From: an uncultured Candidatus Saccharibacteria bacterium
Lineage (GTDB): Bacteria > Patescibacteriota > Minisyncoccia > Phycocordibacterales > CAIRYW01
NCBI GenBank assembly: GCA_964577785.1
Contig: CAZOAK010000001.1
Coordinates: 22,398-86,397 of the forward strand
Reading direction: 5' to 3'
Length of the DNA stretch: 64,000 bases
Shown here: positions 22,293-45,036 of the stretch, piece by piece
How the letters are laid out: each line of letters opens with the position of its first letter
Position numbering within the stretch: the stretch's first letter is position 1
Notes under the pieces: model-generated
Seen by the model: only the letters and a program-made list of their open reading frames with translations
Database searches by the model: none
Told to the model about the DNA's origin: nothing
Translations under genes and position numbers: made by a program

Positions 22293-23516
22293 TTAATTTT
22301 TCTTTGCTAATTCTAACGCTTTGTCTAACTGAGGATCTTTTTTTGCAGCAATATCCTCTGGTGTTAACTCAACGATGTGATCCGGTACAATCCCGTTATG
22401 AGATATTGAAGTTCCTTTCGGTGTTAGCCATCTTGCGATTGTAACCTTTAACATTGAATCGTCTGTAAGTGGTATTAATTCTTGTACAGATCCTTTACCG
22501 TAAGTTTTTGTTCCAACAAGGACTGCTTTGTCATAATCCCTCAAGGCACCAGCAAATATTTCCGATGCAGATGCAGAATTTTCATTTACCAACATCACTA
22601 TTTTTACATTGTTGTTAAATAGGTTGTATCCTTTACTTCTATATGATTTAGGATCCTCTTTTTTACCAAAATCTTCAGTCACAATTACTTTACCTGTTCC
22701 TAAAAACCAACTTGATATATCAACAGCTGCTTCTAGGTATCCTCCTGTATTATTTCGGAGGTCTATTATTAGTTTTGAGTCTTTGTTATCAACGAATTCT
22801 CTGAGTGCAGATCTAAATAGTTCAGGAGAATTAGATGTGAAGCTTGTAAGCTTGATGAGGAAAACACCATCCTCTAATCTCTCTGTCTCAATAACTGGTA
22901 CAGTCACGGAGTCTCTCTTTATGGCCATCTCAACTTTAGACTTACTACTTCCTCTAACAATAACTAAATTTACTATTGTCCCCTTTTTTCCTCTAATTAG
23001 AGACACGGCCTCATCAATATCAATTCCTGACATATTTTTTCCATTAACCTCTGTTATGATATCTCCCTCTGTAACACCATTTTTTTCTGCTGGGGAATTT
23101 TTAATTACCGAAGTTACTGTTAAAACACCTGTTTTCATTGAAAGTACTGCTCCAATTCCATCCACACTACCTGATAGGTCGGTGTTGAAGCTTTTTGTTT
23201 CCTCTGGTGGAAGATATGTTGTGTATGGATCACCCAATGACTCAGCCAATCCCTTAATTGCTCCATAGATTTTATCTTGCTCGCTAGTTGTTGTAGCCGT
23301 ATCAATGTATCTATCTTCTAGTATGTCCCACGCTTTCCAAAAGGCTGACATGTCGATACTATTTCGGTCACTTGTTAAATTATTTGTATAGGTACTTGCA
23401 ATTGCTGTTTTGTTTGCGTCAACATATAGTCCAGCAAAAAAAGAAACTGTTACTAAAAAAGTGGTTCCTACTATAATTCCAGCTCTTTTCCCCAAGTTTT
23501 TTATTGTTTGATTCAT
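22293..23516 (-). CDS. ctpA: S41 carboxyl-terminal processing protease with a PDZ domain
   Basis: N-terminal TM, a PDZ ('GDIITEVNGKNMSGIDIDEAVSLIRGKKGT') and the S41 catalytic region 'LVNENSASASEIFAGALRD'. Confidence 0.85.
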   Translation of the reverse strand: MNQTIKNLGKRAGIIVGTTFLVTVSFFAGLYVDANKTAIASTYTNNLTSDRNSIDMSAFWKAWDILEDRYIDTATTTSEQDKIYGAIKGLAESLGDPYTTYLPPEETKSFNTDLSGSVDGIGAVLSMKTGVLTVTSVIKNSPAEKNGVTEGDIITEVNGKNMSGIDIDEAVSLIRGKKGTIVNLVIVRGSSKSKVEMAIKRDSVTVPVIETERLEDGVFLIKLTSFTSNSPELFRSALREFVDNKDSKLIIDLRNNTGGYLEAAVDISSWFLGTGKVIVTEDFGKKEDPKSYRSKGYNLFNNNVKIVMLVNENSASASEIFAGALRDYDKAVLVGTKTYGKGSVQELIPLTDDSMLKVTIARWLTPKGTSISHNGIVPDHIVELTPEDIAAKKDPQLDKALELAKKN

Positions 23517-36620: not shown

Positions 36621-38648
36621 CTATTTTTTTGCCTCTAACTTTTTATTTAATTCAATAATTTCATCCCGTAGTATGGCAGCTGTTTCAAAGTCTAACTCTT
36701 TTACAGCGAGTGACATTTGCTTTTCTTTTTCCTTTATAAATTTCTTTGGATCTTTTTCAAATAAGAAACTATCAACTGATAATAAGGAATCAATAGTATT
36801 TTTCCTTTCCGATTGAATCGTCTCAGTAATATCTTTAATATTTTTTAAAATTGTTTTTGGGGTTATTCCGTGTTCAGTATTGTAAGCAATTTGGATATTT
36901 CTTCTCCTATTTGTTTCGCCAATCGCCTTTTCCATTGATTTGGTCATGTGATCAGCATATAAAATAACCCTGCCCTCAACATTTCTTGCAGCTCTACCTA
37001 TAGTTTGAATGAGTGATGTTTCGGAACGCAGGAATCCTTCTTTATCAGCATCCAATATTCCAATGAGTGCTACTTCAGGCAGATCCAATCCTTCTCGAAG
37101 TAGGTTTACTCCCACAAGCACATCGAACTTCCCTCTTCGAAATTCTGTAAGAATTTGAATTCTATCCAAAGTCATTATGTCGCTATGCAAATATTCTGCT
37201 TTTATCTTTTTTTCCTTCAAAAATTCTGAAAGGTCCTCTGCCATTTTCTTAGTAAGGGTTGTTGCAATAACTCTAAAGCCTTTTTTGATAGTTTTTTCCG
37301 CCTCTTCAATAAAATCTTTTATTTGACCCTTGTAGTTTCCATTTTCAGTTACTGGTTTGATATCAATCTGAGGATCAATGAGTCCAGTTGGACGAATAAC
37401 TTGCTCCGCGATATTCTCACTATGTTCCTTTTCATATACACCAGGAGTTGCAGAAGTATAAATAACCTGTCCAACACTTTCCTCAAATTCATTAAACTTA
37501 AGAGGTCTGTTGTCAGCCGCTGATGGAAGTCTAAATCCGAAATCAATTAAATTCTTCTTTCTTGAAGCATCGCCAGCATACATTCCACCAATTTGGGACA
37601 CTGTCACATGTGATTCATCAATGATTGTTAAGAAATCAGGGCTACCGTCTGCCTTGTGTGGGAAATATGAAAGCAGCGTTTCTGGAGCCTCACCAGTTTT
37701 TTTATCAGAAAAATGTCGTGAGTAGTTTTCAATACCATTACAATATCCAACTTCGCGAATAAGTGCCAAATCATATGTTGTTCGTCTTTTTAATCTTTCT
37801 GCTTCAATATTTTTACCTTCTTTTTCTAATTCTTTTAAACGAGCTTTTAATTCTTGACTTATACTTTCTATTGCACGCTTCTGTCCAGCTTCGTCAGTGA
37901 TAAAGTGCTTGGCTGGAAATAAAAAGAAGACATCTATTTCTTCAATAATTTCTCTTGTAACAGCATCCACCTTAAAAATTCTAAGTATTTCATCTCCCTT
38001 AAAATCAATTTTGAATATTACTCTTTCATTAACTGGCATTATCTCTACCGTATTACCGAGAGCTCTGAATTGTCCGGGACTAAGATCTGCTATTGTTCTA
38101 TCAAAGTGTATGTCGATAAATTTACGCGCAAGATCATTCCGACTTATTTTTTGTCCAACATCCACTCTGACATTTACCTTTTCGTATTCTTTTGGAGATC
38201 CTAAACCATAAATGCACGATACAGATGAGACTATGATTACATCTTTGCGAGTCAGAAGCGCTTGAGTTGATGCATGCCGGAGACGCTCAATCTCTTCGTT
38301 TATTTGAGCCTCTTTTTCAATGTAGGTATCGGATGCACTCATGTATGCTTCTGGTTGATAGTAATCATAATAAGAAACAAAATAATGAACAGCATTTTCT
38401 GGGAAGAATTCTCGATATTCTTGAGCAAGCTGAGCCGCGAGAGTTTTGTTGTGTGCAATAACCAATGTTGGTTTACCAACATTATGTATTACATTCGCAG
38501 CAGTGTAAGTCTTACCAGAACCAGTCACCCCTAAAAGAGTCTGGTGCTTAAAACCTTTTTTAATTCCCTCCGTTAATGACTCTATGGCTTTCGGCTGGTC
38601 TCCAGCCGGAAGATATTCGCTCCTAATTTTAAATAGATTTGATTGCAT
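36621..38648 (-). CDS. uvrB: Excinuclease ABC subunit B
   Basis: 'LLGVTGSGKTYTAANVI', DEAD-like helicase motifs, and a C-terminal UVR domain 'ELDFETAAILRDEI'. Confidence 0.9.
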   Translation of the reverse strand: MQSNLFKIRSEYLPAGDQPKAIESLTEGIKKGFKHQTLLGVTGSGKTYTAANVIHNVGKPTLVIAHNKTLAAQLAQEYREFFPENAVHYFVSYYDYYQPEAYMSASDTYIEKEAQINEEIERLRHASTQALLTRKDVIIVSSVSCIYGLGSPKEYEKVNVRVDVGQKISRNDLARKFIDIHFDRTIADLSPGQFRALGNTVEIMPVNERVIFKIDFKGDEILRIFKVDAVTREIIEEIDVFFLFPAKHFITDEAGQKRAIESISQELKARLKELEKEGKNIEAERLKRRTTYDLALIREVGYCNGIENYSRHFSDKKTGEAPETLLSYFPHKADGSPDFLTIIDESHVTVSQIGGMYAGDASRKKNLIDFGFRLPSAADNRPLKFNEFEESVGQVIYTSATPGVYEKEHSENIAEQVIRPTGLIDPQIDIKPVTENGNYKGQIKDFIEEAEKTIKKGFRVIATTLTKKMAEDLSEFLKEKKIKAEYLHSDIMTLDRIQILTEFRRGKFDVLVGVNLLREGLDLPEVALIGILDADKEGFLRSETSLIQTIGRAARNVEGRVILYADHMTKSMEKAIGETNRRRNIQIAYNTEHGITPKTILKNIKDITETIQSERKNTIDSLLSVDSFLFEKDPKKFIKEKEKQMSLAVKELDFETAAILRDEIIELNKKLEAKK

Positions 38649-38705
38649 AGATAAATATTAATATAGCACTTCGCGCCCCGTAGCAAATTTGTAATCAAAT
38701 TTTAC

Positions 38706-38762
38706 TTTGGGGTCTCCAGCCGGAGAGTATTCACTCTTAATTTTGAATAAGTTTCCCTTCAT
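38706..38762. repeat. Roughly 55-bp duplicate of the uvrB start region (start codon plus about 17 codons), located 60 bp upstream of the real uvrB start
   Basis: About 80% identical to 38592-38648. It carries its own ATG and would encode MKGNLFKIKSEYSPAGDPKV..., compared with the authentic MQSNLFKIRSEYLPAGDQPK. Confidence 0.75.
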
Positions 38763-38856
38763 AGAAGATGATATTACAATAAAAACAGCGTCTTGCCCAT
38801 GGCCACGAAACACGCAAAGGTGTACGGGCAAGCAAGACGCTTCATAAAGAACAATT

Positions 38857-39048
38857 TTACCGCATTTCACTCTTGAATCTGCGCCTCCTCCTGGTTTCAT
38901 TTTTATCTGCAGAAATCCACAGACACATACCAAACTGGAGTTTAATTTCTCCAAACGGTACGTCAGGAAATTCCTTTCTGACTTTTGCTAGCATTTCTGC
39001 CAGAGTTTTAACTCCGTCGACTGGGAAAATACCTATTTCTTTTTTCAT
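38857..39048 (-). CDS. Small hypothetical protein (63 aa)
   Basis: ORF followed by a strong GC-rich hairpin plus T-run (38797-38851, minus strand). Confidence 0.3.
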   Translation of the reverse strand: MKKEIGIFPVDGVKTLAEMLAKVRKEFPDVPFGEIKLQFGMCLWISADKNETRRRRRFKSEMR

Positions 39049-39370
39049 AATGATTGTTGGTTAGAGTACAGAACCTTCCGTACTCGTATTTACAATCATT
39101 AGAAACAATTACAAATAGAAACACAGAAAGATTTGTGGCTTTTGGTTTTCTTTGTAGTTTTTAAAAATAAATTCATAATTTGTATCATAATCGTTGGTTG
39201 TAGGTTTTATAAAAAGTTGGCGGATTTTTAGGTCCGCCAAGTTATCAAAAGAACATTGTTCACCTACCCGTTGTAGTTCCAGATTTCTTCGTCACTAAAC
39301 AGGATTTTGATTGGTGGTTTAGGATCTGATTTTGCAAGAGTTTGAGCAGTCATTTTATTGGATTTCTGGG

Positions 39371-39643
39371 TCAAAAGAACACATAAACATAATTGTGGGC
39401 ATCCTCACGACAAAACTCACATTCAGTCGTGTGATCATCACAATTCCTTAATTTAATTTCGTTCACAAGCCACCTGAGTGGAATTGGGCTCGGAGAACGA
39501 ACAGTCAGTCCAGAACCATGCTCAAATATTTCAACTGGGAATTCATCACAGTTTCCTGTTAAAATTCCTCGGCCGACAATTTGAACTAGAGCACTTAGAC
39601 TATTCAATCCTGTTTTCAGTTTGGTTAATGGTATTCGTGCCAT
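39371..39643 (-). CDS. Hypothetical Cys-containing small protein
   Basis: ORF with a terminator hairpin (ttggcgga...tccgccaa, 39219-39246) downstream on the minus strand. Confidence 0.35.
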   Translation of the reverse strand: MARIPLTKLKTGLNSLSALVQIVGRGILTGNCDEFPVEIFEHGSGLTVRSPSPIPLRWLVNEIKLRNCDDHTTECEFCREDAHNYVYVFF

Positions 39644-39937
39644 AACAAAAGAGCTCCCTTCGCTTTATGCTTGAGAGCTCGTTTTTGGTGTAAATAGTTT
39701 AGATTAACAACAAAGACCAACTCTCAAACTGTTTTGAGAATCTTTGGCTAGAATGACCTTTGTTGTTTTGAAATTCATAGATGTAATTATATATCACCCT
39801 ATTTAAAATGCAAATAACAAACAAAAGGTTGTTAGATAGTAAGTTTGTGAGTTGGTTAGAAAAATCACGGCACCATAGGTGCCGTGATTTTGCGTCTTCT
39901 TTACAACCTCACCATCTTACCAACTAACCAGCTTCTT

Positions 39938-42466
39938 TTAATTTACCTCCACCGCACTCCAGTTCACTCTACATGCAGTTTCTATTGAAGAGACATCTCC
40001 ACTATCTATCTGAGTACATGTCATTTTTGGTACAGTATCTTTGATAATATTGTCTATTGAATGGGATACTGGTGCCGTAGTTGATCCTGGTGAGAAGCTA
40101 ACAGTTTCTGTTGCTGTACTGAATACACATCTTGTAAAGTAGTCATATGTTTTGAAAACATCAGTACTCCAATCAATAACACAACTGTATCCCTTATTTC
40201 CTAATTCAGGATCAGCTTCTAATGATTTGAATGATACAGATCCAACCTCATCAGCGGCAATATTTGGATTTAGTTCAAAGTATTCTGCAGCTGTGCCAGA
40301 GTTGCATGCATCAGCATTAGATAAACATTGCTGAACTAACTCACAGTAATATGTACCAGATGGACATCCTCCACCTCCTCCACCTCCACCACCATTACAT
40401 CCAACACATGGAACATCAGGATTGTCTTCATTCAAAGAATCAGTCGTTAGACTACAGTTTGCATTTGATCCGCCATATGTGCCAAGACATGACCATGCGT
40501 AAGTAGTCCCAGATAGAACACCTCCCGACATTGACCCTACTGAACAGTAGGACGAATATGCTGGCCATGATGTTATTTTATTTAATCCATTGACACCTCC
40601 ACAAACTCCAGGTACTGGAGGTGGTACACTACAAACACCATAACTATTTGGGACCCTGCCTGTTGCACAATGCACATAATACGGTACATAACCACTAATA
40701 ATGTAGCACCCATCAGTAATATAAAAACTTATTTTCTGCGCACCCGCTTTATCACCTACAGAAACTGATCTGGTGGTAAAGGTATCTGAATCCTGATAGG
40801 TAGTATGTCCTCCTGAAACTTCTGTGTAATGGAACTGTCTGTCTCCGGTAGAGCCATCACCACTGTTATAGAAATTTAGAATTAAATGATTTGTACTATT
40901 GGTACATGCCTCAAAAGTAACATTTCCTGAAAGTGCAATCGTAGACCCTTCTACATAATGAGAGTTGTCATAGGGTGTATAAATAGTTATACCAGGTGGT
41001 GAATACATTTCTATTGTGCATCCATAATATGTATTTGTGTATATCCATCCGTTCGCAGTTATTGGTAATGCAACCGCTGATGCAAAAATAATAAGTGATA
41101 GTGTGGAAATGTTTATTTTTCTCCTTCTAAATAAAACAATCCCAATTATAATAATCAAAGTAATAACGATTATAATGGTAACACTTCTCACAGTCTTGGC
41201 AGACTTTTCCTCGTTAGAAACTTTGTCATAATCATTAGACAATTTTGACTCTTGTCTCATAAGCAAAACCCCATCTTTATTATAAACAGATACAACAGCC
41301 TTCATAACTTTAGCATCCTTTAGGGCACTTAGCGTTATTGGACCTTTTTTATCTTGAGACAGGTCAAATGTATCGGAATAACTAGCAACTAAATCATCCA
41401 ATTCATTTAAGACCACTATATTTATTTTACCGATCCCGGGTTTCTCGGGCTTGGCAACAGATGCACCATTCTTTTTGAGCATCTGATTCACAATTTCAAT
41501 ATCAAAAGGTCTGCCAGATACTAAGAAATTAAGAATAAATTCATCACCAAATTTTACCTGAGATTTATTAGATGATAAGTCGTGCAATGCGGCAATGTCC
41601 CCAGCAACGATATATCTAACACCAATTCTGGTTGCAAGCTGATTACCTTTTTCATCATTTAATAATATCTCAGCAAAATAGACCGCTGGTGTATACTCAA
41701 ATACTGGTAAATCTATCGAAACCTTTTTTAATTCACCAGCCTTTAGGATAATCGGATTCTGCTTGATATCTAACTTCTCACTTTTGTCATGCTGATTGTA
41801 TACATTAATTAGAGGATTGATTGATAATTGATTCAAAGAGTTATTTTCTAGATTAACTGAAAGGTGTGCGGTTTTAGGATCCTTATCTTTATAAATTGTT
41901 GGACCCTCAGTTAAATCATATTCTTTATTATTATCTAGAATTAATTTTGCATTGGTTACCGAAAGCCTGTTTGAATTATTTGCGACAGTAATATAATGAC
42001 TACTACCCTGATTCATGATCACTGAATTAATGGAATACAAATTAATATGTACAGCTAACTTGGAGCCTTTTATGAATTGAGGCACTTTGTACTTAAAAAT
42101 AATTTTTTTTGTTTCACCTCCACTAACGTCACCAACAGAACTTAATGAAGTAGCATCAAGAAAGGTGTTTGTTATCTTCAGATCCTTATTAATTTCTTCA
42201 TAGTCACTTCCAATTAGAACTCTGTATGATAAATTCTTTAGAACAGAATCTCCATGGTTCGTCACGGTAAAACTACCGTTTACTTCATCGCCGGCCTTGT
42301 ACTCCGTGTCATTTATTAAAACATTATCAACCGAAGCACTCGACATTTGAATATTTACACCACTCACACTATTTTGTGGAATGGTATTAGCAGGATTTAC
42401 TTCAACACCAAAAGCTGTGGTTGAAACAAACAATATTGATAAAACTGAAAAAAAAATCTTTTTCAT
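39938..42466 (-). CDS. Large cell-surface protein, paralog 1. Domain order is signal peptide, N-ectodomain, TM plus an internal signal-like segment, poly-Gly, Cys-rich C-domain
   Basis: Signal peptide 'MKKIFFSVLSILFVSTTAFG', 'TIYKDKDPKTA', mid-protein 'IIIVITLIIIIGIVLFRRRKINISTLSLIIFASAVALPITANG', 'CNGGGGGGGGGCPSG', and the C-terminus 'CRVNWSAVEVN'. Confidence 0.6.
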   Translation of the reverse strand: MKKIFFSVLSILFVSTTAFGVEVNPANTIPQNSVSGVNIQMSSASVDNVLINDTEYKAGDEVNGSFTVTNHGDSVLKNLSYRVLIGSDYEEINKDLKITNTFLDATSLSSVGDVSGGETKKIIFKYKVPQFIKGSKLAVHINLYSINSVIMNQGSSHYITVANNSNRLSVTNAKLILDNNKEYDLTEGPTIYKDKDPKTAHLSVNLENNSLNQLSINPLINVYNQHDKSEKLDIKQNPIILKAGELKKVSIDLPVFEYTPAVYFAEILLNDEKGNQLATRIGVRYIVAGDIAALHDLSSNKSQVKFGDEFILNFLVSGRPFDIEIVNQMLKKNGASVAKPEKPGIGKINIVVLNELDDLVASYSDTFDLSQDKKGPITLSALKDAKVMKAVVSVYNKDGVLLMRQESKLSNDYDKVSNEEKSAKTVRSVTIIIVITLIIIIGIVLFRRRKINISTLSLIIFASAVALPITANGWIYTNTYYGCTIEMYSPPGITIYTPYDNSHYVEGSTIALSGNVTFEACTNSTNHLILNFYNSGDGSTGDRQFHYTEVSGGHTTYQDSDTFTTRSVSVGDKAGAQKISFYITDGCYIISGYVPYYVHCATGRVPNSYGVCSVPPPVPGVCGGVNGLNKITSWPAYSSYCSVGSMSGGVLSGTTYAWSCLGTYGGSNANCSLTTDSLNEDNPDVPCVGCNGGGGGGGGGCPSGTYYCELVQQCLSNADACNSGTAAEYFELNPNIAADEVGSVSFKSLEADPELGNKGYSCVIDWSTDVFKTYDYFTRCVFSTATETVSFSPGSTTAPVSHSIDNIIKDTVPKMTCTQIDSGDVSSIETACRVNWSAVEVN

Positions 42467-42621: not shown

Positions 42622-45036
42622 TTAATTAACTTCTACAGCACTCCAGTTCACCCTGCAGATTGCCTCCTTGGAGGCAGTAGCAGTACCGTCTATTTGAACA
42701 CAGCTCATTTTAGTTAGTGTGTCTACTTGAACATCGTATATTGTTTGTGAAGTAGGGGCTGTAGTCGATGCTGGAGAAAAATTGATTGTATTCAAAGGGG
42801 TGGTGAATGTACATCTGGTGTAATTGTCATATGATTTGAATACATCGTCACTCCAATCAATGACGCAACTATAACCTTTATTACCTATTAAGGGTGATGG
42901 AACTAAAGTTTTTAAAGATACTGGACCCTCATTATCAAGTTTAATGTTTGGATTTGGAACGAAGTCTGCTGTACAAGTTTCTCCGCTTAGTAGACACACA
43001 CCGTCACAATATTTACCTGAAGCACAAGAACTGCTACCACCACCAGTAATTCCACCCCCTGTATTATCCCCATTAGTTTTGGAAGCAAGACATGAAGATA
43101 TATTATTTGCACCACTTACATTTGTTCCAGTACATGACCATGACCATTTACCATTTTGTGTTGTAACAGAGGATGCTGTCCCTGAAGAGCACAGGTTTGT
43201 TGATGGTTGTGCCGATGTTCCAACACCATTAGCAGATCCGCAAATTCCATCGTATGTCAAAACTGGGGGGACAGGAGGCTCTGGGACGACAATGTGGACC
43301 CATTTATTATCCACTACTTGACCGCCATACACTGTATCTGTATTTATACCCTGATATAGGAGCCAGTATGAGCCAGGGGTTGTAGGTGCATAAAATGGTC
43401 CAGCAACAAAAGTTGTGTTGTGGGGATAGAAACCATGATCCTTTAAGTTAAGTCCGCCGGCAGTATCTATAACACCAAGACGATGGACCTCTCCCCAACT
43501 GCTTGATACATTTACTCTAATATTAGATGCTGCATTGGTGCATGCTGTGTACCACACACTTCCAGTAGTATAAAATGCCTGTCCTGGATTCAAAACCTGC
43601 CAATCATACGGTGAGGCAGGACTAAGTGTGATAGCAAGACTATCTGCCGCACGAGCATTGGTTGGTGTGAATAAGGTCATAGCAGATATAAGTATAAATA
43701 ATCCCATCATACCCGCATTAGAAGCTCTATTTTTTTTCATCATAAAAAAGATAATCACTCCAATAATTAGCAGCAATGTTGCAAAGAGTAACTTGTTGAG
43801 TGGTCTCGTATGGTTTTTTTCAAATTCAGCAGCTTTAATATCATAATCAGCACTAAGATTTTTCTTGTAATCTAATATTAGTTCTCCTAAATCGTTGTGC
43901 ACTGTAACAGATACTCTTAGAGCTTGAGCTGAAGCAGATGATTTAATGTATTTCTTTAAAACCGTATTACCTGAAATAAGAAACGTATCTTTTACAGAAG
44001 CCACAAGTTGATTCTTTTCATTATAAATATTTACAGTTACGGTACCTTTTTCTTCAGAATCAGTAGAAGAAGGTTTACCACTTCTTATTTCTGACATATC
44101 AGGAGCTGTGCCAGTAAGGAGTGCGTCGAGCGCAAATAGTTCATTATTATTCAAAATTTCTTTGTCAACAGAAATACTTTGAACTGTCGCAATATTGCCT
44201 CCGACTATGTACCGAGCTTCAACAAATGATTCGAGCTGACGACCGCTGGAATCTTTAAGTATTATATCTGTTAGGTAAATTCCCGGCTTATATAGGGCTG
44301 TAGGCAATGGAATAGCTACTTGCTTAGTCTCCTTTGCCTTTAAGTCAAAGGATGTTCCTTTGCTTTCTTGAATTTCAAGCATGTCACTTTGCTTATATAG
44401 ATTTATTTGTGGAATGATTGTTATAGAAGTGTCATTTGGGTTTGTGACTGAGAGAACTATAGAAGCACTCTTTGGATCTTTGTCTTTATATATCGTGGGA
44501 CCATCTCCAAGACCAAATGACTCTCCATTACTCAAAACAACCGCAGCACTATTAATCATGATACCCTCCCCACCCTTTTTTATATTAAAGTAATCACTAT
44601 CCCCCCATGTTATAAGCTGTCCTGATTGTGTGTAGATATCGATGTGTATTGCCAATTCATCACCCCCAACAAAAGCTGGTATAATATATTTGAATGGGAT
44701 ACTTACTGATTTATCTTTTGCTATAGAAATATCTCCTTGTCTGGGACTAAAATCAAGGATATTACTTGAAGATTTTATACCTGGAGCAATTTCTACATAA
44801 TCTGTACCGATCAACAGTTGGAACATAAGTCCAGTTACAGCAAACTGAGAGTGATTTTCTAAGACGAATGATCCGTTTACTGTCTCACCAGCGTTATAAG
44901 AGGTTTTGTCTGTGATGATACTGGCTACGTGTAAACTCGTCTGATTATCCTTGCTTATCGAAACCACTTCAGCATTTGTGAATATGGATAATGAAAAAAG
45001 TATAAACAATAAAATTGGGGTAATGTATTTTTTCAT
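42622..45036 (-). CDS. Large cell-surface protein, paralog 2, with the same architecture
   Basis: Signal peptide, 'TIYKDKDPKSA', mid-protein 'LLLIIGVIIFFMMKKNRASNAGMMGLFILISAMTLFTPTNARAAD', a Gly/Cys-rich segment, and the C-terminus 'CRVNWSAVEVN'. Confidence 0.6.
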   Translation of the reverse strand: MKKYITPILLFILFSLSIFTNAEVVSISKDNQTSLHVASIITDKTSYNAGETVNGSFVLENHSQFAVTGLMFQLLIGTDYVEIAPGIKSSSNILDFSPRQGDISIAKDKSVSIPFKYIIPAFVGGDELAIHIDIYTQSGQLITWGDSDYFNIKKGGEGIMINSAAVVLSNGESFGLGDGPTIYKDKDPKSASIVLSVTNPNDTSITIIPQINLYKQSDMLEIQESKGTSFDLKAKETKQVAIPLPTALYKPGIYLTDIILKDSSGRQLESFVEARYIVGGNIATVQSISVDKEILNNNELFALDALLTGTAPDMSEIRSGKPSSTDSEEKGTVTVNIYNEKNQLVASVKDTFLISGNTVLKKYIKSSASAQALRVSVTVHNDLGELILDYKKNLSADYDIKAAEFEKNHTRPLNKLLFATLLLIIGVIIFFMMKKNRASNAGMMGLFILISAMTLFTPTNARAADSLAITLSPASPYDWQVLNPGQAFYTTGSVWYTACTNAASNIRVNVSSSWGEVHRLGVIDTAGGLNLKDHGFYPHNTTFVAGPFYAPTTPGSYWLLYQGINTDTVYGGQVVDNKWVHIVVPEPPVPPVLTYDGICGSANGVGTSAQPSTNLCSSGTASSVTTQNGKWSWSCTGTNVSGANNISSCLASKTNGDNTGGGITGGGSSSCASGKYCDGVCLLSGETCTADFVPNPNIKLDNEGPVSLKTLVPSPLIGNKGYSCVIDWSDDVFKSYDNYTRCTFTTPLNTINFSPASTTAPTSQTIYDVQVDTLTKMSCVQIDGTATASKEAICRVNWSAVEVN

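Follow-up and report, generated by a model that had tools for sequence, protein, structure and literature searches.

A 114-nt insertion and a probable stranded gene start upstream of uvrB in a Patescibacteria genome

The uvrB gene in the analysed DNA (the window, a stretch of 64,000 nucleotides from an uncultivated Patescibacteria bacterium of the Parcubacteria type) is preceded by a second, similar start codon with a short open frame of its own, which raises the question of which of the two starts is the original one, and whether the short frame controls uvrB or is a by-product of the event that duplicated the start. Relatives used for comparison are denoted by L numbers. The features of the locus are as follows:

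36621..38648, minus strand: uvrB, 675 aa (Pfam UvrB, UvrB_inter, ResIII, Helicase_C, UVR)
38598..38648, minus strand: downstream repeat copy, current uvrB ATG and codons 2-17
38598..38711, minus strand: insertion of 114 nt (38 codons) with respect to L089, from a three-way alignment; within the repeat it could be placed in more than one way
38649..38711, minus strand: filler of 63 nt, not uvrB, with a palindrome, -10-like boxes and an in-frame TAA
38655..38668, minus strand: candidate new promoter, read from the sequence, TGcTATATT (hexamer 38665-38660) overlapping TAATAT (38660-38655)
38658..38762, minus strand: mini-ORF, 34 codons and TAA, with 17 apparently ancestral uvrB codons followed by 17 filler codons
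38676..38712, minus strand: extended palindrome/hairpin CCCCAAAGTAAAATTTGATTACAAATTTGCTACGGGG, with the perfect core AAATTTG-ATTA-CAAATTT at 38685-38702
38712..38762, minus strand: upstream repeat copy, collinear with the functional L089 uvrB start and on that ground the ancestral uvrB ATG and codons 2-17, severed from the gene
38771..38776, minus strand: -10-like box TAATAT, 8 nt before the ancestral ATG (putative old promoter); the same box and spacing are present at the L089 uvrB ATG
38778..38841, minus strand: intrinsic terminator of the 63-aa gene from the RNA fold, hairpin 38841-38787, then GUUUUUAUU
38857..39048, minus strand: 63-aa gene directly upstream of uvrB, with same-position homologues in L082, L083, L085, L086, L089, L094 and L095

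The two starts and their surroundings

The direct repeat consists of two segments of 55 nt (38597-38651 and 38711-38765, 114 nt from start to start) with 78% identity, in agreement with the preliminary description, which gave an about 80% repeat of the uvrB start just upstream of the gene. These are the only two copies in the window; a degenerate 36-nt pattern of the repeat has 2 matches in 64 kb, where 0 are expected (100 shuffles). Both copies end in an identical run of 12 nt (CCGGCTGGAGAC). The ATG and the 34-codon frame reported for the upstream copy are also found, read on the minus strand from 38762 (MKGNLFKIKSEYSPAGDPKVKFDYKFATGREVLY). The stop codon of this mini-ORF (TAA, 38660-38658) lies 9 nt upstream of the uvrB ATG (38648), so its end was correctly placed next to the gene, but the ribosome-binding site at which it was said to terminate is absent from uvrB. 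Used as a protein query, the mini-ORF has as its sole match the counterpart in L082 (MKENSFKIKSEHSPAGDPKAKFDYKFATGREVLC), which is equal in length and in stop position. The 98-aa ORF (38658..38954) that incorporates the mini-ORF had been called spurious and is a mechanical artefact: out of frame with the real 63-aa gene, it takes a TTG within that gene as its start and crosses the terminator hairpin that follows the gene. An assembly artefact as the source of the duplication itself was ruled out, since independent assemblies of two diverged genomes carry it (the window, L001 and L088 on one side, L082/L090 on the other).

Judged from its alignment with solved UvrB chains, in which residue 5 is aligned with residue 4 of those chains, the protein read from the downstream ATG has a complete and normal N-terminus. 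The possibility of an extended UvrB, made by translational bypass or by read-through of the stop, was dismissed: the putative take-off codon is not followed by a stop, and the N-terminus is already complete when read from the downstream ATG. On the other side of the mini-ORF, neither the 63-aa protein nor the small neighbouring proteins have a Pfam, NCBIfam or PHROGs match, the AlphaFold model of the 63-aa protein is of low confidence (pLDDT 66.6), and a metagenome scan with its alignment returned no further contig beyond the one known. A hairpin and T-run equivalent to the terminator of this gene precede uvrB in L082, L083, L085, L086, L089, L094 and L095.

No Shine-Dalgarno-like 4-mer was seen at any of the 44 long ORFs of the window. 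In 22 of the 44, a -10-like hexamer (at least 5 of 6 positions) is present 5-11 nt upstream of the ATG, as compared with 7.2% of all ATG triplets, and the spacing between this box and the ATG of the long ORFs has a mode of 6 nt. These counts point to a genome devoid of Shine-Dalgarno sites and with largely leaderless mRNAs. In such a genome even a short duplicated segment can bring along everything that a gene start needs and, with about 6 nt from the -10 box to the ATG, promoter and start codon would form a single module of roughly 20 nt.

The insertion and its filler

The alignment of the window, L082 and L089 contains a clean gap, with exactly 114 columns in which L089 has no sequence. In L089, the 63-aa gene, the terminator and the TAATAT box are all present, and ATG AAG GAA AAC... 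leads straight into uvrB (MKENLFKIKSEYSPAGDQPKAIESL...). The upstream copy in the window is identical to this functional start at 45/51 positions and the downstream copy at 36/51. Because the uvrB gene of L089 begins at an ATG matching the upstream copy, and does so without the 114 nt, what had been described as a pseudo-start is, on the evidence of the alignment, the ancestral uvrB start, and the present start is the new copy within the insertion. The insertion, as aligned, is of in-frame length and placed after uvrB codon 17, and is made up of the 63-nt filler and a second ATG/17-codon copy. The earlier suggestion that the repeat is a remnant of a local duplication was essentially right, except that the copies have to be exchanged, with the upstream one as the original and the current start as the new one, and that the event was an insertion of 114 nt which includes 63 nt unrelated to uvrB. 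This history is drawn from three informative genomes, with L089 represented by a 1.1-kb contig from k-mer assembly. The L089-type junction without the cassette reads GGCGACCAACCGAAGG.

The filler is identical in the window and L082 at 58/63 positions, including one fully identical stretch of 36 nt. Its 39-nt core shows no similarity to uvrB codons 18-58 (1716/2000 shuffles score as well). The same core matches L085:1681-1706 (23/24 positions; 0/2000 shuffles), a site that follows tgt and precedes a tiny ORF, and the uvrB promoter motif of L084 at 14/15, with weaker matches at L084:5961, L082:4716 and 39190-39160 of the window. By these matches, the filler is related to a palindromic element near other promoters of the small-gene/uvrB cluster. 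When the cassette was compared by blastn-short with all fetched DNA, no source emerged for the 3' part of the filler, and a scan of viral contigs with the filler core gave 0 exact matches.

The predicted fold energy of the palindrome in the filler is -13 kcal/mol for the window and -14.7 kcal/mol for L082 (z = -2.8 and -3.5, respectively). The palindrome is not followed by a U-run, and its core pattern occurs once in the window. In the case of the candidate new promoter, the TAATAT box is located 6 nt before the uvrB ATG and includes the stop codon of the mini-ORF; both box and spacing are kept in L082. A generic promoter/terminator scan at the locus returned the neighbouring terminators only and no promoter in the filler, and Rfam searches of 38400-40100 (E up to 1) and of the whole window (gathering thresholds) gave nothing at the locus.

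Distribution, age and the rival readings

The cassette with its mini-ORF is carried by 2 of 11 lineages at 85% UvrB identity or more (10 relatives and the window), namely the window and L082. The comparison of uvrB upstream regions proposed earlier has a divided outcome: the duplicate is present in L082 and absent from the nearest relative, L089, and from seven others with 85-88% UvrB identity (L083-L086, L092, L094 and L095). No cassette was found in the 80 species-representative genomes fetched, the Patescibacteria members of which have 57-75% UvrB identity, and the UvrB scan of a genome collection reached relatives of up to 75% identity only, none with a second copy.

Between the window and L082, uvrB has only 53% identity at third codon positions. 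Yet the stranded copies of the two differ at 10/51 positions (1, 2 and 7 at codon positions 1, 2 and 3), and the stranded copy of L082 differs from the functional L089 start at 1, 1 and 8. The downstream copy of L082 has 3/42 differences from the upstream copy of the window and 10/42 from its own upstream copy, and the relative-rate test gives unique changes of 1 vs 8 (P about 0.02-0.04); the substitution tests are based on 42-63 sites each, and their P values lie close to 0.02. Segment by segment, the window and L082 are 92% identical over the filler and 86% over the new copy, and the identity drops to about 76% over the 38 nt that follow; in the 243 nt past the junction the window groups with the insertion-free L089 (9 shared derived sites vs 3 and 2). 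That the new copy of L082 is nearer to the start of the window lineage than to its own stranded copy suggests a recent spread by recombination. A target-site duplication in place in L082 was rejected, as the new copy is not derived from the old L082 start.

A leader peptide or uORF regulating uvrB, as had been proposed, is unsupported as a dedicated device, and a functional role of the mini-ORF as regulatory uORF, leader peptide or small protein, acting by termination-reinitiation coupling or by melting of the filler hairpin, is in our judgement doubtful. In its favour, the ATG, the 34-codon length and the stop position are kept between the window and L082 even though the synonymous sites of uvrB are near saturation, the uvrB-derived half differs mostly at third codon positions (1, 2, 7), a conserved hairpin is located within the ORF, and in a leaderless organism translation from an AUG at the 5' end is likely; the identical 36-nt stretch of filler together with the kept length and stop is likewise compatible with a functional element or peptide. 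The coding-like pattern is, however, equally explained if each copy was a real uvrB start until recently. The ORF is missing from L089 and from the seven relatives at 85-88%, and its filler half is conserved at all codon positions (2/17 third and 2/34 first and second positions differ), which is not peptide-like and points to a constraint at the nucleotide level or to recency. At an aromatic position, where all fetched UvrB starts have Phe, Tyr or Trp, L082 has His. No terminator, attenuator or antiterminator is located between the copies or ahead of uvrB (38762-38648), and the sole strong hairpin (38712-38676) is inside the ORF and lacks a U-run. The Gram-positive-type SOS box GAAC-N4-GTTC is absent near uvrB and uvrA, and its hits elsewhere are at chance level; a crude motif search of the window found neither lexA nor recA.

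With regard to the origin of the cassette, an old insertion, inherited vertically from an ancestor that the window, L082 and L089 share and later lost from L089 through precise deletion between the direct repeats, is unlikely, somewhat more so than the regulatory uORF. The identical 12-nt run at the repeat ends is a plausible substrate for such a deletion, and the grouping of the window with L089 despite the cassette in L082 requires either loss or transfer. Yet the stranded copies would then have been neutral throughout the divergence of the window and L082 (third positions 47% different), and only 3/34 of their first and second positions differ; the closeness of the new L082 copy to the old copy of the window (3/42, against 10/42 to its own) is left unexplained. 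Less probable still is that about 114 nt of uvrB were simply duplicated in tandem and that the first copy decayed in place. Such a history would fit the head-to-tail copies with a spacing of 38 codons, and the homology that extends from the ATG as far as about codon 20 if one missing codon is allowed. However, the filler core is unlike the uvrB codons expected there and has a significant homologue elsewhere, decay in place conflicts with the coding-type substitution pattern, and no intermediate allele with a filler recognisable as uvrB codons 21-32 was found. Upstream of the two ATGs the only shared sequence is TAATAT, which is not significant (693/2000 shuffles score as well). The least probable account is that of a scar left by a site-specific integrating element that supplied a surrogate uvrB 5' end and has since been mostly deleted, in the style of e14 or phage 21 at icd. 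It agrees with a duplicated gene end, with a displaced copy that differs mainly at synonymous sites and with a replacement copy that brings its own putative promoter, and is opposed by the 63 nt that separate the copies, the lack of a third copy in the window, of an integrase or recombinase domain in the neighbouring ORFs tested and of an exact match of the filler core in the viral contig collection, and the resemblance of the filler to a palindrome native to the uvrB gene cluster.

Proposed course of events and comparison with known systems

The reading that we favour, with moderate confidence, is that an insertion re-headed uvrB and left the ancestral start stranded as a by-product mini-ORF and not as a dedicated regulator. 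The insertion would have been tolerated because it brings a promoter-start module (TAATAT, 6 nt, ATG), from which the gene may now be expressed to give a UvrB with a normal N-terminus. Transcription from the old promoter (TAATAT, 8 nt, ATG) probably continues; on the resulting transcript the mini-peptide would be translated and, with a stop 9 nt before the uvrB ATG, reinitiation may follow. By the predicted leaderless architecture the mini-ORF is probably translated, as a by-product. With less certainty, the cassette may have arisen recently in a lineage similar to the window and L089, and may have passed to the L082 lineage by homologous recombination over a short tract. A bolder proposal, which we regard as speculative, takes the 114-nt segment as a self-contained leaderless start cassette (palindromic operator, -10 box, ATG and N-terminal codons) that would be mobile across diverged Patescibacteria by means of its own duplicated codons and would re-head uvrB, with a 34-aa uORF coupling transcripts of the old promoter by termination-reinitiation, resulting in two-promoter, operator-controlled expression.

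In general, the locus offers a concrete case of how a gene start may be rebuilt in the absence of ribosome-binding sites: with a promoter-start module of about 20 nt, an insertion of roughly 100 nt can decapitate and re-head a gene in one step, with a small ORF as the residue. The locus also calls for caution in annotation, as gene callers gave a spurious ORF of 80-98 aa here, and, if the lateral spread is true, it would be a small example of promoter/start exchange among diverged members of the candidate phyla radiation. The knowledge of UvrB and of nucleotide excision repair is not changed by it.

Duplicated gene ends are known from icd of E. coli, where the attachment of e14 and phage 21 leaves a surrogate gene end. 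Similarly, the duplicated end keeps uvrB intact, and the displaced copy adjoins it and differs mainly at synonymous sites; unlike in icd, it is the 5' and not the 3' end that is duplicated, and in place of an element body or integrase there are just 63 nt. Homology-facilitated illegitimate recombination, reportedly described in natural transformation by de Vries and Wackernagel in 2002, is anchored by homology on one side and joined illegitimately on the other, so that a short foreign insert with a partial duplicate of the anchor is possible. Such a mechanism would fit both the filler with the duplicate and the short tract in L082.

In mycobacteria, leaderless transcripts with translated short upstream ORFs were reportedly found by Shell et al. 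in 2015, and many of the leaderless small ORFs there are by-products of promoter placement. The mini-ORF is predicted to resemble them in its 5'-terminal AUG just past a -10 box and in the absence of a Shine-Dalgarno site, and what sets it apart is that it is itself the cut-off N-terminus of the gene that follows. Tandem promoters, one of them repressed by LexA, are said to precede uvrB of E. coli (Sancar et al. in 1982 reportedly); two putative tandem promoters are likewise present here, with the palindrome in between, but unlike in the LexA-controlled gene no GAAC-N4-GTTC box accompanies them. The filler palindrome, TTTG-N4-CAAA, merely resembles the LexA box of Leptospira, TTTGN5CAAA (PMC4756842).

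The cassette may also be compared with putative mobile promoters and promoter capture (Matus-Garcia, Nijveen and van Passel, 'Promoter propagation in prokaryotes', PMC3488235). As in those cases, a short putative promoter segment, akin to sequences upstream of other genes, now heads uvrB and would rewire its transcription, and the filler core recurs at L085:1681-1706, at the L084 uvrB promoter and at L082:4716; with the L085 site after tgt (23/24), a homologous segment is found upstream of non-homologous genes. Unlike mobile promoters, the uvrB segment is located inside the coding region, where it adds an ATG and 17 codons and decapitates the old start.

Duplicated uvrB start in the window

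A repeat search of the window finds a direct repeat of 55 nt (38597-38651 and 38711-38765, 78% identity, spacing 114 nt), and a degenerate pattern derived from it matches at these two copies only, with no match expected by chance. The duplicated start segment claimed in the preliminary description is therefore real. The region is composed as follows:

39048..38857, minus strand: a real gene of 63 aa, directly upstream of uvrB
38841-38787, minus strand: terminator of the 63-aa gene, hairpin plus U-run
38776-38771, minus strand: TAATAT box, 8 nt from the upstream ATG
38762 (ATG) to 38660-38658 (TAA), minus strand: upstream copy opening a mini-ORF of 34 codons (MKGNLFKIKSEYSPAGDPKVKFDYKFATGREVLY)
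38712-38676: palindrome (hairpin) of 37 nt, made of the filler core and the last bases of the upstream copy
38711-38649, minus strand: filler of 63 nt, first part of the insertion
38660-38655, minus strand: TAATAT box that shares bases with the mini-ORF stop codon, 6 nt from the uvrB ATG
38648-38598, minus strand: second ATG with 17 codons, second part of the insertion
38648..36621, minus strand: uvrB, 675 aa, with all UvrB Pfam domains

The ATG and the 34-codon open frame were correctly described. The 98-aa ORF, already regarded as spurious, is a mechanical artefact that starts at a TTG within the 63-aa gene, in another frame, and reads through the terminator hairpin of that gene. The mini-ORF was said to end at the uvrB RBS region; its stop does lie 9 nt before the uvrB ATG, but there is no RBS region, since none of the 44 long ORFs of the window has a Shine-Dalgarno-like 4-mer at positions -18 to -4 and -10 boxes lie near the ATG instead. 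Such hexamers (at least 5/6 match to TATAAT) are found 5-11 nt before the first ATG in 22 of the 44 (mode 6 nt), against 7.2% of all ATG triplets, and often read TGnTATAAT. Both repeat copies keep the TAATAT box. The pattern, in a genome apparently devoid of Shine-Dalgarno sites, indicates widespread leaderless mRNAs in this Patescibacteria bacterium; the mRNAs of operon-first genes are inferred to have no leader, or almost none. A Patescibacteria MAG contig (GCA_020049755.1) encodes an identical UvrB; among genomes, the closest are MAGs of the Parcubacteria/Paceibacteria type.

The insertion and its history

None of the 80 species-representative genomes fetched, in which the Patescibacteria UvrB are 57-75% identical to that of the window, has a second N-terminal uvrB copy; closer sequences came from a large protein database. 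The proposed comparison of uvrB upstream regions located the duplicate in one relative's locus, L082 (UvrB 93% identical), with the same order of 63-aa gene, terminator, TAATAT, 34-codon ORF (MKENSFKIKSEHSPAGDPKAKFDYKFATGREVLC), 9 nt and uvrB. It is absent from L089 and from seven relatives with 85-88% identical UvrB (L083, L084, L085, L086, L092, L094, L095), most of which show a small gene and terminator, then directly a -10 box and the uvrB ATG. The decisive locus for the interpretation is L089, reached via the 63-aa protein. Like the window, it carries the 63-aa gene, the long form of the terminator hairpin and the TAATAT box, and its ATG AAG GAA AAC... runs straight on into uvrB (MKENLFKIKSEYSPAGDQPKAIESLTEGIKK...). 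In the three-way alignment of window, L082 and L089, exactly 114 columns are missing from L089.

The upstream "pseudo-start" is the ancestral start of uvrB, in its original place: it matches the L089 uvrB start at 45/51 positions, against 36/51 for the downstream copy. Both the window and L082 have, after codon 17, an insertion of 114 nt, equal in length to 38 codons. An in-frame TAA in the filler cuts off the old start, so uvrB must begin at the new ATG; residue 5 of the resulting protein aligns with residue 4 of solved UvrB chains, hence the N-terminus is complete.

Between the window and L082, uvrB is 81% identical in nucleotides and 53% at third codon positions, so neutral sequence shared by descent should be near random. 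The fillers differ at 5/63 sites, across all codon positions, with one 36-nt stretch identical, and identity falls from 92% in the filler through 86% for the new copy to about 76% over the 38 nt that follow. The stranded upstream copies differ at 10/51 sites (1, 2 and 7 at first, second and third codon positions); the corresponding counts for the L082 copy against the functional L089 start are 1, 1 and 8. Given this third-position bias, both evolved like coding sequence under purifying selection. In codons 4-17, the L082 downstream copy shows 3/42 differences from the window upstream copy, 5/42 from the L089 start and 10/42 from its own upstream copy. The relative-rate test gave 1 vs 8 unique changes (P about 0.02-0.04), the 8 being all transitions, 6 of them at third positions. 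In the 243 nt after the junction, derived sites are shared 9 times by window and L089, 3 times by window and L082, and twice by L082 and L089.

These data speak against a relic that both lineages simply inherited vertically. On the simplest reading, the cassette (filler and second start) would have been born from a uvrB start of the window/L089 type and would have entered the L082 lineage by homologous recombination over a short tract; each stranded copy would have served as the genuine uvrB start until a fairly recent time. That one assumption covers the patchy occurrence, the substitutions of coding type and the small divergence of the filler. An old insertion later lost in L089, or selection on the mini-ORF peptide, is conceivable on tests that draw on three genomes and roughly 50 sites each, but either needs several extra assumptions.

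Filler sequence and expression of uvrB

The filler core is not diverged uvrB sequence (1716 of 2000 shuffles align equally well with uvrB codons 18-58), so the structure is not a simple tandem duplication. It is significantly similar, by shuffling, to a palindromic element elsewhere in the relatives' copies of the gene cluster, matching L085:1681-1706 at 23/24 positions (0/2000 shuffles) and, within the uvrB promoter of L084, the motif AATTTGTTACAAAT at 14/15 (2/2000), with weaker matches at L082:4716 and window 39190-39160. Folding of the 37-nt palindrome yields -13 kcal/mol for the window and -14.7 kcal/mol for L082; it is not followed by a U-run. The filler carries TGcTATATT and TAATAT upstream of the new ATG. 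A generic scan called no promoter in it, and its putative promoter function is therefore judged from the genome's own architecture.

In the working model, the conserved old promoter, which adjoins the terminator of the 63-aa gene, would give a transcript starting at or next to the old ATG and translated into the 34-aa peptide; with translation ending 9 nt short of the uvrB ATG, reinitiation would be possible. Another -10 box, spaced at the modal 6 nt, would come from the filler, so that uvrB could be made from its own leaderless transcript. A regulator could bind the palindrome 38-55 nt upstream of the new ATG. Its resemblance to the Leptospira LexA box, TTTGN5CAAA (PMC4756842), is only a lead, and no GAAC-N4-GTTC SOS box occurs near uvrB. 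Terminator scan and folding detected no terminator or attenuator between the copies. Of the elements suggested for that interval, neither a GAAC-N4-GTTC SOS box nor a terminator was found. Tested as a leader peptide of the attenuation type, the locus fails.

Surrounding genes and comparison with known systems

The 13-14-nt palindrome AATTTGTTACAAAT is exact in four relatives (L083:5573, L085:2356, L086:2351, L084 (5961)). It belongs to the promoter region of the 63-aa gene except in L084, where it immediately precedes uvrB; at the corresponding position (39163-39176, minus) the window carries a degenerate form (ATTATGATACAAAT). The palindrome is a candidate operator for a regulator of the cluster. 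The motif (A)ATTGTTCTTT directly follows small-gene stop codons, just before terminator hairpins, in the window (38846-38856, minus, and around 39257, there as GAACAATGTTC) and in L082-L086, L092, L094 and L095. The pre-uvrB hairpin is ~30 nt longer in the window (38787-38841), L089 and L095 than in L082 (5831-5866), and the GC-rich loop region is conserved among the long versions.

The 63-aa protein (38857-39048, minus), conserved directly upstream of uvrB in the clade, has an Arg/Lys-rich tail and no family match; its low-confidence AlphaFold model (pLDDT 66.6) suggests a beta-alpha-beta-beta layout. Another small gene (78-93 aa) comes next in some relatives. A leaderless-looking ORF of 24-27 codons ending ...SLRVxxCC* (window 39704-39778, minus, MNFKTTKVILAKDSQNSLRVGLCC) is conserved in six genomes (window, L082:4764, L085:1758, L086:2046, L083 about 4907, L084 about 5432). 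Downstream of it come a near-invariant stretch, TTGTTGTTAATCT...ATTTACACCAAAA, and then a terminator that immediately precedes a gene of 90-102 aa. The ORF has no Rfam or protein-family match and may represent a small peptide of Cys-Cys type or a leader RNA.

Two adjacent large genes of the window (39938-42466 and 42622-45036, minus; 842 and 804 aa, the former with a poly-Gly run) lack a firm Pfam domain. The 12-mer GCACTCCAGTTC occurs at both 3' ends (39954, 42638), which suggests paralogous surface-type proteins. At this position, upstream of the small-gene cluster, relatives have tgt (L083-L086) or a Mur ligase gene (L092). The sole Rfam match at gathering threshold, Rp_sR47 (Rickettsia sRNA47; 22466-22607, plus; 62.4 bits, cut-off 60), is antisense to a 407-aa ORF (22293-23516, minus) and probably represents conserved coding sequence, not an sRNA.

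We rate the uvrB duplicate as a real, lineage-restricted evolutionary scar. The suggested remnant of a local duplication holds for the duplicated start, but the filler is not uvrB-derived and the upstream copy is the original. Where genes are leaderless, such "re-heading" is easy, and recombination may have spread the cassette. Three known systems are similar: promoter capture ("mobile promoters", PMC3488235), the surrogate gene ends of prophage attachment sites, and what homology-facilitated illegitimate recombination produces. Unlike in all three, the inserted piece lies within the coding region and brings a putative promoter, a start codon and N-terminal codons together, without an element body.
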